From the IMG/VR virus record IMGVR_UViG_3300042290_000544: a stretch of DNA of 64,000 nucleotides. The stretch is one strand, 5' to 3'. Of this stretch, positions 3,246 to 46,566 are shown piece by piece. Below the pieces are notes generated by a model. It did not search any database. It worked only from the letters and a program-made list of their open reading frames with translations, and had not been told where the DNA came from. Numbering within the stretch: position 1 is the first letter of the stretch; each line of letters opens with the position of its first letter. The translations under genes were made by a program, and so were the position numbers. The stretch comes from a virus.

Positions 3246-3947
3246 GTTTTCGTAAAAGCCGCGGTACAATTCGGTTTCTTCGGCTCCGATATTCTTTCTG
3301 AGGAATTCAAGTGCTGGGTCTCGGGTACCGTCGATACGATTGTGTCCGTTACCGTAACCACCACTGACTCCATACATACCTTTGATTCCGATAAGAGTTC
3401 TCTCGAAATCTTTGGGTTCATGGATCTTTTTACTTGCCTTCTTTATGTTCCAGAGGCGAACATCAACAAATGGGCACGTATCTTTTAAGATATTGGGCAT
3501 CTCGTGGAATAGATTGCGATTAAACGAGCTCTGACAGAGACTGCAATGGGTCATATTGCTATGGATCGACCACGTTCTTTTAAGCACATTGTAATAAAGA
3601 GCGCGACCCTCTCCGACTAGATCGTAGGTGCCCGAATTAAACCAGCCTATTGTTTTTTCAAGATAGTCCTTGGAATACCAGTCATCGTCCTCGATAATGA
3701 CCACGGCATCTCCCGTAATCATTTCCTGATGCTCAAATAGATTCCTTAACTTTAACACCAAACTCTGTTTTCCCTTGGTCTCGGGCGTATGGATATGCTG
3801 CTGACCGAGTGTGCAATTGACGGGCATTGTGCTATCGTCCAAGACAATCCATTGATGGTAAGGCACCGTCTGTCGAGCCATAAATCTTTCACAGAGTTTA
3901 AATGCTTCTTGACGGTTGCATGTGGGAGTCACGAGAGTAAGTTTCAT
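3240..3947 (-). CDS. Glycosyltransferase family 2 (GT-A fold)
   Basis: LVTPTCNR, WIVLDD and IIEDDDWY (DxD) motifs. Confidence 0.8.
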   Translation of the reverse strand: MKLTLVTPTCNRQEAFKLCERFMARQTVPYHQWIVLDDSTMPVNCTLGQQHIHTPETKGKQSLVLKLRNLFEHQEMITGDAVVIIEDDDWYSKDYLEKTIGWFNSGTYDLVGEGRALYYNVLKRTWSIHSNMTHCSLCQSSFNRNLFHEMPNILKDTCPFVDVRLWNIKKASKKIHEPKDFERTLIGIKGMYGVSGGYGNGHNRIDGTRDPALEFLRKNIGAEETELYRGFYENK

Positions 3948-38418: not shown

Positions 38419-39938
38419 AGTGAGACCTCATAGATTTTATAATTGAACTTTTCTTTGGAGTATAGTTTAATTCTTTCAGCAGCATGATCCAGTGTGTAGT
38501 TACGAGACTTCTTCCAATGAAGGTCATCGGCAATATCAAATACCTTTGTGGCGACTCCATTATCGGACTTACGCAAGCCACGTCCGATGGACTGAAGCAC
38601 ACGAATCTGAGATTTTGAAGGAGAAGCAAACACGATGTTGTGTAGGTTTCTTATATTTATACCTGTGGAAAATGTACCCATGGAAGCCACAATGATTGCG
38701 TCCTTCTCACCTTCAGTAATGGCACGGATGCGTTCACGCTCATCGGTATCCACACTTCCAGAAACAAAGAATAGCTTACGAGTGCGGCGTGGCATTTCAT
38801 TCAGCCTTTCATTAATCATCTCATAGAGAGGCTTCCCATGTTTCTCAACATAGTTGTAAAGTACAAGAGTGTTACCTTCCTGAGCAAGAGCCAGGTTCCG
38901 AATGAATTTATTCCGAGCCTCATTTGCAACAATAAAGTCAATTTCTGCTTGATAGTCGAACTGCTTTGCTGCTTGGCATACCTCATCACTGTATTTCAGT
39001 AACAGCACGGAAATGTCAAGGTCGGAAAGAGCATTCTGTTCAATAAGTTCCTTCGTGCTAGTTACCTTATAGACGGGACCAAAGAGACCTTCAAGGACCA
39101 ACTTATGTGTCTGCGTCCCGTCCAGTGTACCAGTGGTACCAATACGGAACTTTGCATCTCTGAGTTTCTCCATGATGGAAGCCAAAGACTTAGCTTTAAA
39201 GTTGTGCGCCTCGTCTCCCATCACCATACCGTATGGCTCAAACCACGTGGCTTGCATCTTGTAGATGGACTGCCATGTAGTAATAATGACGCGTTGACTA
39301 ATGTTGATTTTCTCCTTACCCGAATAGATTCTATGGCAGGTTTCCTCGACGCTCCACGATTCTTCAAGTGTTGCGTAGTCGGCAAAGTCTTTGTACATCT
39401 GTTCCACAAGCGAAGTTGTAGGTACAATTAGCAATACTTTCTTATTGTATTTAGAAAGGTACCAACGGATCAGCACATAGATAATGAGTGACTTACCAGA
39501 AGCCGTCGGGCTCAACAAAAGTGTCTTCCAATGGCGAAGCGCGTGTGCAATGGCTTCGACCTGGTAATCACGAGGCTCAATAGACTTACCGTGGGCATAG
39601 AGATTCAGGCTGGCAATAAATTCGGCAAGCTCATTTGGTTCGATGAGTTCCTGCGTATGAGGTAGCCCGTAGTAAGGATCATCAACATACTCAATCTCAC
39701 ACTTACGAGTCTCCGCAAACTCTTTGATGTAAGGCAGAAGACCGCCGTAGATGGTCTTTAGGCGAGCGTCAAAAAGCCGAATCTTTCCGTCCCATATCTT
39801 ATTTTTGTAGGCTGGCATGAACTTATAGCCAGGAACGAAAAAGGTAAAGAATTCGGATAACTCATTCGCGATTGATGGTTCGCACTCGATATGGATATAC
39901 ACCTCATTCTTTTTGCGGATTTTAAGAATGTCGGACAT
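38415..39938 (-). CDS. uvsW: SF2 helicase UvsW
   Basis: WDGKIRLF, SPTASGKS, DEAH, QSIGRGLR. Confidence 0.95.
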   Translation of the reverse strand: MSDILKIRKKNEVYIHIECEPSIANELSEFFTFFVPGYKFMPAYKNKIWDGKIRLFDARLKTIYGGLLPYIKEFAETRKCEIEYVDDPYYGLPHTQELIEPNELAEFIASLNLYAHGKSIEPRDYQVEAIAHALRHWKTLLLSPTASGKSLIIYVLIRWYLSKYNKKVLLIVPTTSLVEQMYKDFADYATLEESWSVEETCHRIYSGKEKINISQRVIITTWQSIYKMQATWFEPYGMVMGDEAHNFKAKSLASIMEKLRDAKFRIGTTGTLDGTQTHKLVLEGLFGPVYKVTSTKELIEQNALSDLDISVLLLKYSDEVCQAAKQFDYQAEIDFIVANEARNKFIRNLALAQEGNTLVLYNYVEKHGKPLYEMINERLNEMPRRTRKLFFVSGSVDTDERERIRAITEGEKDAIIVASMGTFSTGINIRNLHNIVFASPSKSQIRVLQSIGRGLRKSDNGVATKVFDIADDLHWKKSRNYTLDHAAERIKLYSKEKFNYKIYEVSL

Positions 39939-40879: not shown

Positions 40880-40896
40880 ACAAGTATTTATAAACT

Positions 40897-40962: not shown

Positions 40963-42312
40963 TTAGCCATTGTCAAGGAGACCAGAGACACCGAAGATAC
41001 GGAAGTATCTGTTGGCGCGATTGGTTCCGGTGCCGTTGCTGATGTCGGAGACATTAGTTTCAGCGAATGGATTTGCGACCATGCCGTAACGGGTTTTGAA
41101 TCCGATACGTGGTTGGAAGTCAGATTGACCGACTGCACGTACCATGGTGAGTGGAACGTATGGTGCGTAGAACATACCTGCGTCATACGGATTGGTACCA
41201 CGGTAACCGCTGGTGACGTAGTCAACAGTGGCATATGGATCAATGTAGACCTTGGTACGACCGTTGAGAACGCCAGCAAAGGTATTGCCGGTATCGTCAA
41301 CTTCGAGGCTGGTGCTGAGTGCTGGAGCGTAGTCGAGTACGCCTGCAGCTGCGAGTGCGGTAGCAACATCCGAAGAGCAGAGGATGAAGTTACCCTTGCC
41401 ACGACGTGTTTCTTTTGCGATAACATTCGCTTCGCGTTCGATTTGAACAAGAAGACCCTTGAAGCGTTCAACGTTCCAACGACCATCAGAGTCGGTGAGG
41501 AGGTTGAAGTTACCCTTTGTGGCAACGTTTGCTTGTTGTGCACCGAGCTTGGCTTTTACATTGATCGTGCGGATAACTTCGCGGTTGATTTCCGCGAGGA
41601 TTTCAGCAGAGAGGATGTTAGCGAGCTCAGATTCTGCATCAAGACCGTGGACGGCCTTGAGGTCTTGAGCAAGTTCCATGGTGTATTCAGCCTTCAGAGC
41701 GCGGGTCTTAGCGGTAACGGTTTGTTTCTCGATTGAGAAAGCCATTTCGCCGAATGAACCTGCACCGGAAGAACCTGAACCGAGACCTTCAGCAGTGCTG
41801 GTGGCCATACCGGTACCAACTGAAAAGGTATCGGAAACGGTATCGGTATCGCTGTCTGCACCTGTTCCACCTTTAGCAGATGGGAGAGATGAAGAATCGC
41901 CGCCGCTGGTGCCGGTGCCAGCAAATGCTGAATCGGCTTCGTTGAAGAGAGCTTCAGTTCCACCTTGTGAGGTGTACTTGCTCTTCATAGCGAAGATCAG
42001 ACCGGTTGGTCCGCTCATTGGTTGAACGCCAGCGATGTCGTAGGCGATCAGGTTTGGCATGCTACGACGAACAAGGCTAATGAGGATTGGATCCCAGTTA
42101 GCGATGTTGCCTGTGCCACCGGTGGTAGCATTAGCAGCGGTCTCATTGAGACCTTGGAAAGACGACTGAGCGCGTTCTTCACGGAGTGCTTTTTCTTGAT
42201 TTTCAAGAATGCACGCTGTAACCGAACGGCGGTAGTTATCTTTGATTGATGGGAGATCCTTATGGTTGATGATAGGATTCCACTTTTCTTGGAGTTTTTC
42301 TGAGTTGAACAT
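40963..42312 (-). CDS. gp23: Major capsid protein
   Basis: GVQPMSGPTGLIFA, RALKAEYTMELAQDLKAVHGLDAE, GFKTRYG. Confidence 0.98.
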   Translation of the reverse strand: MFNSEKLQEKWNPIINHKDLPSIKDNYRRSVTACILENQEKALREERAQSSFQGLNETAANATTGGTGNIANWDPILISLVRRSMPNLIAYDIAGVQPMSGPTGLIFAMKSKYTSQGGTEALFNEADSAFAGTGTSGGDSSSLPSAKGGTGADSDTDTVSDTFSVGTGMATSTAEGLGSGSSGAGSFGEMAFSIEKQTVTAKTRALKAEYTMELAQDLKAVHGLDAESELANILSAEILAEINREVIRTINVKAKLGAQQANVATKGNFNLLTDSDGRWNVERFKGLLVQIEREANVIAKETRRGKGNFILCSSDVATALAAAGVLDYAPALSTSLEVDDTGNTFAGVLNGRTKVYIDPYATVDYVTSGYRGTNPYDAGMFYAPYVPLTMVRAVGQSDFQPRIGFKTRYGMVANPFAETNVSDISNGTGTNRANRYFRIFGVSGLLDNG

Positions 42313-42346: not shown

Positions 42347-43681
42347 TTATGACTTGAGTGTGCGGGTAATTGCTGAAGAATATGCTGCCATTACGGGAGT
42401 CAGTTCAGTTTCCTGTTCTGATTCATTGAGTACGGCGGTTTCTACTTCATTTTCTTTGGACTTCTTAACAATCTTGCGGAAGTAAGATTCTTTGACGGAC
42501 CGAACTTTCTTTGTGAAAGATTCAGCATCTTCAAAATCAATACCTTCTGACAGACTGGTGAGCTTGACTGCTTCTGTTGAAGCAAGACCGACTGAAGCCT
42601 CAGCAAGGATCTGGTTGCGCTTGAGGGCGTTTACAGACTCATTGAGTTTCATGTTGGATTCGGTTGCCTTCATCAGCTGTTCTTCAAGGGAAGCAACGTT
42701 CTTATTGAGTGTATCAACAAGATTTTCCTTGCCTTCTGGAACTTCGATGTAGCTTTCAGTAAACACATTCTTCAATGCGTTAATGAAATTTTCGGCGATT
42801 TCGGTGCGTAGACCAGATTCGATTGCAACTTTGTTCTCTTCCATCCAGGTACCTACGACATAGCTAAGATAGCTGTCGACCTTTTCTGAGAGCGAAGAAG
42901 CAATTTTAGTTGTTTCTTCATCCAGTTGGGAGCGGTAATTTTCCTCAATGCGGGAGACTTCTTCTGCAAGTTTGGCCTTAACGGTTGATTCAAACAGCTG
43001 AGATGCCTTAGAACGGAAAGATTCGGAAAGAGAGGTTTCGGCCTGTAAGAGGACATCAAGGTTTTCCTTAACGTCATCTTTTTCTTTCTTGTCTTTTTCT
43101 TCGTCATCGGCAGATTTCTCTGCTTCTGGTTGCTGTTCGTCTTCACCTTTTTCGTCGGCTTTTTCAGCTTCTGAATCGTCTTCGGAACCTGCCTTTGGTT
43201 CTTCAGCCTTTGGCGTCTCTTGTGGAGTCGTTAGAGTGCTGTAAACATTGGCAAGATCCTCAGTCTTCATTGTTGACATATGTTGGTACATTGCGTTGAT
43301 GAGCCCAGCTTTGGTCTGTGGAGCCTGTGCAACTGGAGCAGCAGCAATAGCTGCGTCGGTAGCTGCAACGGACTTTTGAACCTCTGGTGCAAGTGCTGGA
43401 GACTCTGGTTTTCCCAGAGAATGTGGCGCAACCGCCACTGGAGCAGCACTCACTGCGGACGCAACTGCATCGGCGGCTGGTTTTACAGCATCCGCGGCAG
43501 GCGCATCGGTCGGTACAGCATTTGCTACTGGAGCATCAGCAGTACCTTCTTCGTCATCAAGCTTCTTCTTGCCTTGTTCCTCGCCAGAAACTTCAACATC
43601 TTCAACGAGTCCATCAGCAAGTAGTTCCTCAACAGTGATGTCTTCAATGAGATCGACTTGACCTTTTGATGTGTGTGACAT
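42347..43681 (-). CDS. gp22: Prohead core scaffold protein
   Basis: LSESFRSKASQLFE, KVDSYLSYV..WMEEN.VAIE.GLR; long acidic/Ala-Pro N-terminal extension. Confidence 0.9.
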   Translation of the reverse strand: MSHTSKGQVDLIEDITVEELLADGLVEDVEVSGEEQGKKKLDDEEGTADAPVANAVPTDAPAADAVKPAADAVASAVSAAPVAVAPHSLGKPESPALAPEVQKSVAATDAAIAAAPVAQAPQTKAGLINAMYQHMSTMKTEDLANVYSTLTTPQETPKAEEPKAGSEDDSEAEKADEKGEDEQQPEAEKSADDEEKDKKEKDDVKENLDVLLQAETSLSESFRSKASQLFESTVKAKLAEEVSRIEENYRSQLDEETTKIASSLSEKVDSYLSYVVGTWMEENKVAIESGLRTEIAENFINALKNVFTESYIEVPEGKENLVDTLNKNVASLEEQLMKATESNMKLNESVNALKRNQILAEASVGLASTEAVKLTSLSEGIDFEDAESFTKKVRSVKESYFRKIVKKSKENEVETAVLNESEQETELTPVMAAYSSAITRTLKS

Positions 43682-43734
43682 ATTTGTTTTAGATTTAGCC
43701 TACTATAATAGTATAGTGGTTAAAGTTTAGAGAG

Positions 43735-43873
43735 GATATCAAGCGAGAATTGCTTGTGATCAGTCTCTGTTAATTCACGAATTACCTTGGATGTATTCAC
43801 GTTACCATAATTAGCATCTTCAGTTTTACCCATAATAGAAAGTCTTGAGCAATTATTTAAGAACAATTGCATC
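43735..43873 (-). other. 139-nt structured insertion at the gp21 3' end, flanked by duplicated CTC
   Basis: TTT CTC [GATGCAA...TTGATATC] CTC TCT AAA CTT TAA; the two ends can base-pair. Confidence 0.5.
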
Positions 43874-44497
43874 GAGAAAGTTTTTGAACACCCGTACCTG
43901 AGCTTCAATAAGCTGTTTGGACGGTGTACGGTTGATTTCTTTTTGAATCTTCTCGGCAATGATTTCATTACCGCGAACAAAGTATTCAACGCCTTCCATG
44001 ATACCATTGACGAAGGCTTCTGGAGCAGAAGGATCCTGAACAATATCAATGGTGGAAAGTACAAAGTCGGATTTGACCGACATAATGTTGCCGTTGCGTT
44101 CCAGTGAACCCATACCGCGGCTCGAAACGCCAAGACGAACTCCGCCTTCAACGAGACCCTTTACGATGTTGCCCATCGGAGTATTGAGAATAAGCGCCTT
44201 ACCCATTACGTTATGTCCGTCCCATTTGAGAGAGGTAATGCGATGTGATACCTTATCAAGGTTTACGGTAGGACCATCTGGGTGATTCAGTTCACCAACT
44301 GCACGACCCGTCGTAACTTGCTCATTCACATATTTGGCAACTGCTGGAGAAAGAACATTGTAGCGATAGATGCGACCATTGCGGTTTGCCTTTTCGGCTT
44401 GCATAAAAACACCTTCAACATATGTTTTCTTTTCTGCGCCGACGCCTTCGGTAATATAACCGATGTCACTATCGAGATGTTCTGTGATCAACTTCAT
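43853..44497 (-). CDS. gp21: Prohead protease
   Basis: MKLITE, NRNGRIY, GELNHP, GVSSRGMGS, DPSAPEA. Confidence 0.96.
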   Translation of the reverse strand: MKLITEHLDSDIGYITEGVGAEKKTYVEGVFMQAEKANRNGRIYRYNVLSPAVAKYVNEQVTTGRAVGELNHPDGPTVNLDKVSHRITSLKWDGHNVMGKALILNTPMGNIVKGLVEGGVRLGVSSRGMGSLERNGNIMSVKSDFVLSTIDIVQDPSAPEAFVNGIMEGVEYFVRGNEIIAEKIQKEINRTPSKQLIEAQVRVFKNFLDAIVLK

Positions 44498-44503
44498 TTG
44501 AAA

Positions 44504-44809
44504 TTATTCTGCTTCTGAATTGTGATATGCAATCATATTCTTATGATGCTGCATTAAAAGATTGTGATACTTCTTGCCCGAACCTGGCATACTCATTGAA
44601 TAAGGTTCGGCTAACTTTTCGTGAGCATCATGAGCCTGCTGATGCATCTTGCTGGCTAACTTATGATGCTCTCTACGTAGCGCGTGTTGAGAATGAGAAT
44701 TTGCAATGTTAGTTGCATCATGTGCATGATTTTGCGCATAATCATGATTATAATCGAGAGCTGTCGCCTCTGCGATCATCGAACGAACTGAATTAATTAA
44801 GTCGTGCAT
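44504..44809 (-). CDS. His-rich protein at the prohead core (gp68) position
   Basis: Start MHDLINSVRSMIAE right after the upstream stop; repeated His-Ala helices. Confidence 0.55.
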   Translation of the reverse strand: MHDLINSVRSMIAEATALDYNHDYAQNHAHDATNIANSHSQHALRREHHKLASKMHQQAHDAHEKLAEPYSMSMPGSGKKYHNLLMQHHKNMIAYHNSEAE

Positions 44810-44810
44810 A

Positions 44811-44984
44811 TTATTTAATATCCGAAGTCGGTTTCTTGTTGTAAAGTTCCGAAGCCAAAGATGCCTTGCGTTCATCAAGAACGGCATTAATCTTGGATGT
44901 CATCACGCGAGTAAAGTTCTCATTGGCTTCCGAGGCTTTTCCGGACGCCAATGCTTTAATCATTGTGGTAATGTCATTATTCAT
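44811..44984 (-). CDS. Small prohead core protein (gp67-like position), not in the ORF track
   Basis: Hand translation MNNDITTMIKALASGKASEANENFTRVMTSKINAVLDERKASLASELYNKKPTSDIK (57 aa); late promoter at 44993-45000. Confidence 0.75.
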   Translation of the reverse strand: MNNDITTMIKALASGKASEANENFTRVMTSKINAVLDERKASLASELYNKKPTSDIK

Positions 44985-45018
44985 TATGAAGCTATTTATA
45001 TGTTTTTGTATTTAAACA

Positions 45019-46566
45019 TTACTTACTCGGAGGCATTTCAGGTGCCGGATTTGCCATACCTTCAATTTCTGCCATTCTTTGTTCTTCGGCAGCCTGAGCA
45101 GAACCATCCTCGTTCATTTCTGCATCCATCGTCTCAATGTCTTCGTCGGTCTGCTGAAGAATGTTACGGCGGACCCATGTGTCGGAGAAGTATTTCCCGA
45201 CAAATGGTTGTGCAGCATTCAGAAGTTCAATGCGATTTGTGAGGATTTCAGCTTCTTTTAGCTCGGTAAAGTAATTATCCTGACGGAAGTCAACCGTCAT
45301 GTCCTCACGAATCTGCGGCCAATCTTCTTCGGTAATGATACCCTTGAGCATCAATTGAGTCTGAAGTAGATCAAAGAACATGATCGAGAACTTTTTACGC
45401 AGACGGTCGACAAACTTTTGGAACTTGACCTCATCACGTGAAATCTCTGTGGTTCTACCAAGGCTGAATGGAGTTTCCGGCTCCATGCGCCCGATCGGTA
45501 CATTTAAGCAGCGATAAAGTTTCTTTTGGAAGAACAGAATGTCGTCAATCTGACTTAGGTTCTCTCCGCCCGGAAGCGTAGAGATTTCGGTACCACGACC
45601 ACCCTCGCGGCGCGGAAGCCAGAAGTCTTCAAGCATTGACATATGCTTACGGTCATCGCGAATTTCACCAGTCTGAGCATCATATACCAACTTATTACGG
45701 TACTGATTCATAATTGTGCGCATATATTCTTCCGCCTTACCCTTTGGAAGATTGCCCACATCAATGTAGAAAATACGGCGTTCCGGAGCACGTGCAAGAC
45801 GATAGATGACCAATGAGTCTTCCATCATGCGCAGTTGATTCACGGGCTTGATTGCCTTATGGAGCGGAGACAGAACACGCTTACGGGTAGCATCAAGAAT
45901 ACCGGATGGCACATAACAGATTGCATCCTTATTAATCTTGAGCCCAATGTCCGACTTCTGAAGACCGCCATCCTGGTAGAGGTAATACTCATCAAGATTC
46001 TTAATGATTTTGGCACCCGTTTTTGGGTCCATTTCTTCTTTAATTTCACGGACCTTACGGATACGGAGTGCATCAACCGCCCGCAGTTCTTGAATACCTG
46101 CGTCGGGCTGAGTTTCATCAATGATCATATGATAGAACAAACGTCCATCAATGTACCATCTACGGAAAATATCCTGACCATTATTACTGAAATTAAGTAA
46201 TTTGCAGAGGTGATCAAACTCTCCACGAATTAGTTTCTTAATTGAAGCCGGCTGTTCCAGACGGTCCAAGTTAAGGTGTGCCGGAACATCGTCATGGTCT
46301 CCGACAATAGCTTCATTTACAATATCATCAATTGCCTGGTCGCACTCGGGCTGTTCAGCTGCAATACGATACTTGCGGATTAAATCGACATCCGTCTTTG
46401 CTGCATCTCCATCAAGGTCGAGATACTGACCATAGTAACCTCCGGCGGCAATCGCAGTGGAACCGTCCTCCGAGCTTGCGGGCACGAAAGAAACTGGTTG
46501 TTCTGCAATCTTCTTGCGTTTCTCAGCATCGCTGAGTTTTTCAAATTTCCATCCGAAAAATTCCAT
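45019..46566 (-). CDS. gp20: Portal vertex protein
   Basis: NQLRMMEDSLVIYRLARAPERRIFYIDVGNLPK, EDFWLPRREGGRGTEI. Confidence 0.98.
   Translation of the reverse strand: MEFFGWKFEKLSDAEKRKKIAEQPVSFVPASSEDGSTAIAAGGYYGQYLDLDGDAAKTDVDLIRKYRIAAEQPECDQAIDDIVNEAIVGDHDDVPAHLNLDRLEQPASIKKLIRGEFDHLCKLLNFSNNGQDIFRRWYIDGRLFYHMIIDETQPDAGIQELRAVDALRIRKVREIKEEMDPKTGAKIIKNLDEYYLYQDGGLQKSDIGLKINKDAICYVPSGILDATRKRVLSPLHKAIKPVNQLRMMEDSLVIYRLARAPERRIFYIDVGNLPKGKAEEYMRTIMNQYRNKLVYDAQTGEIRDDRKHMSMLEDFWLPRREGGRGTEISTLPGGENLSQIDDILFFQKKLYRCLNVPIGRMEPETPFSLGRTTEISRDEVKFQKFVDRLRKKFSIMFFDLLQTQLMLKGIITEEDWPQIREDMTVDFRQDNYFTELKEAEILTNRIELLNAAQPFVGKYFSDTWVRRNILQQTDEDIETMDAEMNEDGSAQAAEEQRMAEIEGMANPAPEMPPSK

Follow-up and report, generated by a model that had tools for sequence, protein, structure and literature searches.

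We examined the junction between the genes gp21 and gp22 in IMGVR_UViG_3300042290_000544, an IMG/VR record of an uncultured phage, whose 64,000 nucleotides (nt) were analysed as a whole and are called the window below. The head genes of this phage form a T4-type block on the minus strand. The gp21 gene (43853-44497, minus), which encodes a prohead protease of 214 amino acids (aa), matches Pfam Peptidase_S77 over residues 19-165 with an E value of 6e-41, and the gp22 gene (42347-43681, minus, start at 43681) encodes a scaffold protein matching Pfam T4_CASP (E 1e-58). The two genes are separated by a gap of 171 nt. The gp21 protein ends in FKNFLDAIVLK-stop; the last codons of the gene read CTC (43876-43874), then GAT GCA ATT GTT CTT AAA TAA, with the stop at 43855-43853. 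A second CTC, in the series CTC TCT AAA CTT TAA (43734-43720), is found 142 nt downstream of the gp21 CTC and in another frame. The original prediction, made on this DNA before our analysis, had seen in this arrangement a structured insertion splitting the end of gp21 between two matched CUC codons. The coordinates and sequences on which it was based (the DAIVLK end of gp21, the downstream CTC TCT AAA CTT TAA, the gap and an open reading frame (ORF) of 37 codons within it) were all correct.

The region is also structured, as had been proposed. A stretch of 199 nt was much more stable than shuffled versions of itself (z -3.66), none of 200 shuffles being as stable. In the minimum-free-energy fold, the gp21 stop codon is enclosed in a hairpin of 9 base pairs (43848-43870, minus), at the place where a hairpin had been predicted over the new gp21 stop, and this hairpin is identical or near-identical in the related loci L003-L009. 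In contrast, the pairing claimed for the ends of the insert (GAUGCAA with UUG-A-UAUC) is not used in this fold and is not conserved; its 3' partner belongs to the covarying hairpin described below.

The spacer and the gp21 3' end

No cultured phage was close to the window, the best gp21 match being below 60% identity, and the junction gave no match when it was searched as DNA against the phage collection. Many relatives of the locus were found in IMG/VR. The same long spacer, followed by a downstream (D)FLSKL-stop remnant, was present in 13 contigs with gp21 proteins 92-99% identical to that of the window and in two others at about 75%. About 70 distinct, more distant gp21 genes end in ...DFLSKL-stop or ...NFLSLLK..., with gp22 only 4-31 nt away. 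The original prediction was therefore right in taking FLSKL as the usual ending of T4-like gp21 proteins. We then classed 118 distinct loci by the position of a conserved helix, characterized in the next section. In 71 loci, with tabulated gaps of 31 nt or less, the helix lies inside the gp21 coding sequence; in 33 loci, all with a gap of at least 88 nt, it lies in the gap; 14 loci have neither arrangement, namely 13 outgroup loci and L018, which is placed among helix-bearing lineages. Phage C48C1 has the helix in its coding sequence. The spacers of the gap-bearing relatives measure 88-201 nt.

A profile of 32 gap-less gp21 3' ends was compared with the spacers using nhmmer. Matches that were collinear, with an internal deletion, were obtained for L017 (E 9.5e-8), L016 (E 3.6e-5), L043/L045 (E 2.4e-5) and L012 (E 8e-4). 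In the window, the match covered the last 28 nt of the spacer, around the LSKL-stop (E 0.018-0.05). The segment at 43720-43734 (minus; nhmmer E 0.018) has the same position and sequence as the real gene end of L018 and of L019-type genes, and the profile match bears out the suggestion that the downstream LSKL-stop is a genuine remnant of an ancestral gp21 ending. For the remainder of the window relic, homology was shown via L016/L017 and by a covariance model, R1, built from 25 relics only. On the window, R1 scored 61.8 bits (E 9e-9) and found a single copy in 64 kb, the next hit having an E value above 1. Applied to the coding 3' ends of gap-less gp21 genes, the same model gave full-length matches of 27-43 bits, one per locus and always at the gp21/gp22 junction; it had no match in the outgroup phages.

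The relic defined by R1 in the window (43722-43846, minus) comprises ATTATGG (from I-M-E), an ATGG/TGGGA-type island, TGAAT, GAGACTG (from E-T-E), TCCTCTC (from F-L-S) and the old stop. In gap-less gp21 genes the coding sequence reads ..ATTGAA NNNNNN GAGACTGAAATT.. (I-E-x-x-E-T-E-I) and then ..TTCCTCTC.. (F-L-S), two strands that are predicted to pair; they are exactly 61 nt apart, except in L071 (58 nt). The spacers hold both motifs too, just 11-31 nt apart. In the L048 relic, the spacing ATTATGGA-N16-TGGGAAA equals the I-M-E...W-E codon spacing, according to a hand count on a consensus-written coding stretch of gap-less genes. The parental gp21 frame has been lost from the relics through stops, frameshifts and internal deletions, in every lineage. 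Past L-S the remnant is not constant, L010-L014 having lost the stop and L043-L057 continuing at length with unrelated sequence. Judged from these sequence comparisons, the spacer derives from the last ~60 codons of a gp21 gene, of which it is a second, downstream copy, collinear but decayed and broken in frame. Because the spacer is a second copy of the gp21 end, the matched CUC codons can be equated as homologous Leu positions in two gp21 ends, and some 140 extra structured nt do separate them, as predicted. The CUC/CUC match alone is at chance level; it acquires its meaning from the comparison with relatives and not from the match itself.

This result bears on the mechanisms first put forward for the junction. 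In a ribosomal bypass like that of T4 gene 60, or with a spliced or self-cleaving intervening RNA, ...NFL would be joined to SKL-stop. The region is indeed strongly structured, removing 142 nt restores the common FLSKL ending, and in the window subclade, as in gene 60, matched codons flank a structured untranslated gap in an apparent frame. However, the CUC/CUC pair occurs in that subclade only, the take-off codon of other relatives being CUG, UUA, CUU or UUG against an invariant landing CUC. The take-off CUC is followed by GAU, the stop coming six codons on, and the distance of 142 nt in the window is widely variable among relatives. It is the upstream tail, with its own stop, that is conserved as protein, whereas the resumed frame, or downstream "exon", is not kept as coding in other lineages. 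Moreover, Rfam searches returned no relevant intron or ribozyme match in the window (E up to 10) or in seven related loci (E up to 0.1). The defining features of a gene 60 bypass that were tested thus fail here, and recoding or splicing at this junction appears extremely improbable. The functional gp21 copy of the window is 43853-44497, with a "type B" C-terminal module, and it terminates normally, at the DAIVLK-stop.

The other mechanism considered at the outset, a non-autonomous mobile element of the MITE (miniature inverted-repeat transposable element) kind with a 3-nt target duplication, was rejected. The covariance search for other copies found one in 64 kb and one per related locus, at the gp21/gp22 junction only. 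The body of the supposed element is homologous to gp21, its end pairing is not conserved, and the repeated CTC is accounted for by the homology between the two gp21 ends.

The C-terminal modules of gp21 bear on the origin of the two-copy arrangement. In gap-less genes the module contains VEWIW, NGILKPQQIE.YETEI and DFLSKL; in gap-bearing genes it contains VEYF.., GNE.. and a tail FL-x-(E/D/A)-(I/V)-x..., this tail being present in nearly all gap-bearing relatives. In L163, the functional gp21 ends like L019-type genes, the first 12 nt or so past the stop included, and the relic and gp22 leader match L158/L195-type genes, a pattern characteristic of illegitimate crossing over between phages that had diverged. 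The relic could thus have been left by one illegitimate recombination event, either a partial tandem duplication or the placing of a different gp21 allele before the resident 3' end. After a duplication the jobs would have been split, the upstream copy keeping the protein and losing the RNA motif, and the downstream copy keeping the RNA motif and losing the reading frame. In this respect the relic is similar to the 3'-end remnants of mosaic phages, being the collinear, frame-broken end of a neighbouring gene with junctions that differ by lineage (L163 against the window type). The new gp21 tail and spacer might be the translated beginning of the second copy (its V-D-I-V-Q-D codons), and in a comparison made for this purpose p values of 0.025 (window), 0.014 (L048) and 0.001 (L096) were obtained; these matches are weak and inconsistent, with no significance in about 10 other loci, and the idea is a suggestion only.

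One locus, L018, has a window-type gp21 body joined straight to SKL-stop, which is exactly the product of the hypothetical deletion. We interpret it as the probable result of a secondary deletion between the two TTYCTC repeats. Its gp21 gene (L018:3001-3894) ends in FLSKL-stop, and the GAGACUG strand is missing from it. Instead of a gp22-like gene, a His/Ala-rich ORF comes next, similar to the one that precedes gp21 in the window, and the contig ends soon after.

The conserved hairpin

Unguided RNAalifold analysis of 25 distinct spacers returned one helix, made of GAGA/UCUC, a CU/C internal loop and a variable stem. In the window this hairpin occupies 43730-43767 (minus) and is composed of the invariant GAGA/UCUC pairing, the CU/C internal loop, GAU/AUC, a 2x2 loop, CAAGC/GCUUG and the terminal loop AAUUCUC. 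Across the alignment, pairing was found in 91.6% of the helix cells, and in 40-63% when the partner strand was slid as a control. The covariation score was 0.387, against at most 0.174 in the controls, and was reached by none of 500 shuffles. Double changes occur at all five variable positions of the helix, in 37 cells compared with 12 in shuffles, and the compensatory changes include G-U pairs (U-G 8, G-U 3). A second conserved hairpin between ATGG and TGGGA was not found; individual folds differ in this interval and RNAalifold supports the terminal helix only. Rfam contained no match for the hairpin or spacer element, and no description of it was found in the papers searched, including a survey of 104 motifs (PMC2864571).

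The strands of the helix are constrained in both arrangements. In the gap-less class, Phe is encoded by TTC and Leu by CTC in 44/44 distinct genes, and the I-E..E-T-E-I codons are ATT GAA..GAG ACT GAA ATT in 40-44 of the 44; other conserved Leu columns of the same genes use 4-6 codons. In the 33 loci of the other class, the motifs have disappeared from the coding copy, whose Leu codon is CTC, CTG, TTA, CTT or TTG. The window spacer diverges from those of L003-L009 by 1.2-3.5%, and the four-fold sites of gp21 by 18-28%.

The spacer could also be a neutral pseudogene remnant that has not yet been deleted, its hairpin being an accident of ancestry. Such an explanation agrees with the demonstrated derivation from coding sequence and with the decay of most of the body, which has shrunk to 88-201 nt. 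Against it, the relic evolves 5-10 times more slowly than the adjoining synonymous sites and persists in lineages whose gp21 proteins are only ~60% identical; its stem covaries, its strands are frozen at synonymous sites when they are in coding sequence, and it stays with gp22 despite inserted genes. Neutrality is therefore very unlikely. Unlike the ordinary remnants of mosaic phages, this one is under strong purifying selection and contains a covarying RNA structure, and for these reasons it is not mere debris. It apparently has been retained because it carries the conserved hairpin.

We also considered that the conserved strands might act as DNA, in the form of a promoter-like site, a protein-binding site or a hairpin of single-strand DNA. 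A protein might recognize the invariant GAGAC/CCTCTC and a TTGA-like box that lies 8-9 nt upstream, and the junction is without the usual late promoter. The compensatory changes, G-U pairs included, nevertheless fit RNA pairing on this strand rather than recognition of duplex DNA, and the variable stem leaves no hexamer conserved at a fixed distance. A DNA-level role is accordingly quite improbable. A promoter of the sigma-70 type (TTGA box and -10 element) was rejected, no hexamer surviving the variable stem.

Outside the junction, a regular-expression search of the window for GAGAC[AT]G...CCTCTC found only one other match, at 3537 (+), whose two parts are 64 nt apart. Chance alone would give about 0.4 matches of this kind, and this one is without covariance-model support.

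Linkage to gp22, late promoters and the conserved AUG

In the 104 distinct helix-bearing loci, and in both arrangements, the distance from the end of the helix to the gp22 AUG is 14-48 nt, with a median of ~30 nt; one outlier of the coding class has 85 nt. In L099, L165 and L180 an extra ORF (335, 104 and 91 aa, respectively) is present between gp21 and the relic, and the relic is still directly 5' of gp22. Taken with the covariation, this indicates that the relic keeps a strongly conserved, covarying RNA hairpin tied to gp22. The extra ORFs themselves are located at L099:2170-3177, L165:2155-2469 and L180:1013-1288. In L165 and L180 the extra ORF starts like the small ORF upstream of gp21 in the same locus (MS..IKAI.EAY..MLNE..), which suggests a duplicated gene of the prohead-core type.

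The distribution of late promoters was then compared with that of the helix. The late-promoter motif TATAAATA/(T/N)ATAAATA is present at the gp21-gp22 junction, without the helix, in 12 of 13 outgroup loci and in the cultured phages S-RIM50 and Melnitz, and the junction is without a TATAAATA-type motif in 98 of the 104 helix-bearing loci. This complementarity between lineages is suggestive. The window contains 13 TATAAATA motifs, against 2.3 expected, among them 44993-45000(-), 40885-40892(-) and 38654-38661(-). None was found in its gp21-gp22 and gp22-gp23 junctions. The motif nearest upstream of gp22 is the one at 44993-45000 (minus), with no other from there to gp23, which is probably the major capsid gene (40963-42312, minus, assigned by position only). 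Since neither gp22 nor gp23 is preceded by such a motif of its own, gp21, gp22 and gp23 may share one late transcript.

A palindrome, CTATACTATTATAG (43703-43716, minus), lies between the relic and gp22. It is found as CTATA..TATAG in L003-L017, its counterpart in L010 reading CTATAATATTATAG, and it folds as a hairpin; it could be a promoter variant or a hairpin.

The 37-codon ORF of the window, MGKTED...ILSKL (43720-43833, minus), starts at an AUG at 43833-43831, runs through the conserved hairpin and ends at the ancestral gp21 stop (43722-43720). Its ATGG is invariant in 25/25 relics, and the conserved AUG is preceded by a U-rich leader. The original prediction had given this ORF as an alternative reading of the spacer, and of this reading the AUG is conserved and the peptide is not. 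A real small protein, of 37 aa in the window and of 40-52 aa in L016/L017, would explain the invariant AUG behind its U-rich leader, the open frame in the window, L003-L006, L010-L017 and L165, the in-frame indels between L016 and L017 and the finding that 4/6 substitutions among the closest relatives are synonymous. Yet in L007-L009, which come from different samples, a 1-nt deletion in the hairpin loop frameshifts the last eight codons and the stem is kept. The window and L010 differ in 12/37 residues, the changes being spread 8:5:9 over the codon positions, and L010 has no stop at this place. Elsewhere the conserved AUG opens an ORF of just 2-12 codons, with unrelated peptides and frames, and neither the 37-aa nor a 42-aa ORF belongs to a Pfam or PHROG family. 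It is therefore unlikely that the spacer encodes a real small protein. In 11/14 lineages, the ORF starting from the conserved AUG stops at most 12 nt before the helix or runs through it, against 11/28 for the other two frames. Together with the invariance of the AUG, this hints that translation into the helix matters.

A possible cis-acting role in the gp22 leader

We infer that the hairpin acts in cis, as RNA, in the leader of the gp22 mRNA. The reading that we favour, to which we give about three chances in four, is that the gp21 relic has been retained for this cis-acting leader hairpin, which a duplication or an allelic replacement would have freed from the gp21 frame. The hairpin would be needed where gp22, being without its own late promoter, is expressed from the gp21 transcript.

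As to how it might act, our preference goes, tentatively, to a mechanism in which ribosomes coming from upstream would remodel the hairpin and so tune gp22 initiation; we regard this as possible rather than probable. In the ancestral layout the remodelling ribosomes would be those translating gp21, and in the window those translating the short ORF from the conserved AUG. Such remodelling would resemble that of a long-range coupling helix. Alternatively, the hairpin may stabilize a 5' end after mRNA processing, or may be an operator for a phage protein. A more specific proposal, which we consider doubtful, is that T4-like phages of marine and lake waters use the GAGACUG/CCUCUC helix for translational coupling, as a device not described before. 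In this role the helix would set the output of gp22 relative to that of gp21 on a shared late mRNA and would have to be melted by ribosomes from upstream. After recombination had moved the helix out of the gp21 frame, the old Met codon would have been retained by selection to start a mini-ORF solely delivering ribosomes into the helix.

In MS2 and Q-beta, a long-distance interaction ("Min Jou") couples translation of the coat gene to initiation at the replicase gene. The coding-embedded helix is similar in that a strand in the upstream ORF pairs with a strand before the next start, a pairing that ribosomes melt in those phages and may melt here; its strands are 61 nt apart, the 3' strand lying ~30 nt before the gp22 AUG. 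It differs in that the 3' strand leaves the gp22 start region uncovered and that, in the window, the helix is outside the gene. T4 has translational operators in mRNA leaders, a hairpin operator for gene 43 and a leader pseudoknot for gene 32. Like these, the element is a small conserved leader RNA of a T4-type gene, here presumably cis-acting, and its short stem with the invariant internal loop has the look of a hairpin recognized by a protein. Unlike these, it has no sequence similarity to the T4 operators, lies further upstream, is attached to a late structural gene and has no known binding protein.

Several points weigh against the favoured reading. The function of the hairpin is entirely inferred, and the hairpin does not overlap the gp22 ribosome-binding region. 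The invariant GAGA/UCUC base of the helix cannot show covariation. The complementarity of promoter and helix corresponds to essentially one deep split in the tree, that is, to about one evolutionary event. In the window, the relic body beyond the last 28 nt is too diverged for a direct match to the gp21 profile. The gp21 N-terminal tree implies ~5 changes, and the approximately unbiased test does not reject one common origin for the type-B set (p-AU 0.09). Finally, the synonymous share of the ORF substitutions in the window subclade (4/6) makes a translated peptide possible.

The analysis removes a recoding story that was tempting but wrong and puts in its place an RNA hairpin that can be tested. 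This hairpin, absent from Rfam, accompanies the scaffold gene in more than 100 distinct T4-like phage lineages, sitting in the protease frame or, after what may have been a partial duplication, outside it. The two arrangements amount to a natural experiment: they show selection on an RNA structure that overlaps coding sequence, and how duplication may resolve such an overlap. If the hairpin does control the gp21:gp22 ratio, it would bear on how protease and scaffold are balanced without a separate promoter.

In L163 (2143-2200), and at the same place in L156, a TATAAATA motif and a GC-containing hairpin (GGTTTTGTGG..CCACAAA) are found between the gp21 stop and the relic. In these two loci the conserved hairpin would lie in a promoter-proximal gp22 leader.

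Upstream of gp21, the head-gene block of the window continues with two small ORFs of 127 aa and 57 aa (44504-44887 and 44811-44984, minus) and with gp20, the likely portal gene (45019-46566, minus, assigned by position only). Neither small ORF matched a Pfam family. Their place in the block is that of genes 67 and 68 in T4. The 127-aa ORF of the window (44504-44887, minus) is His-rich.

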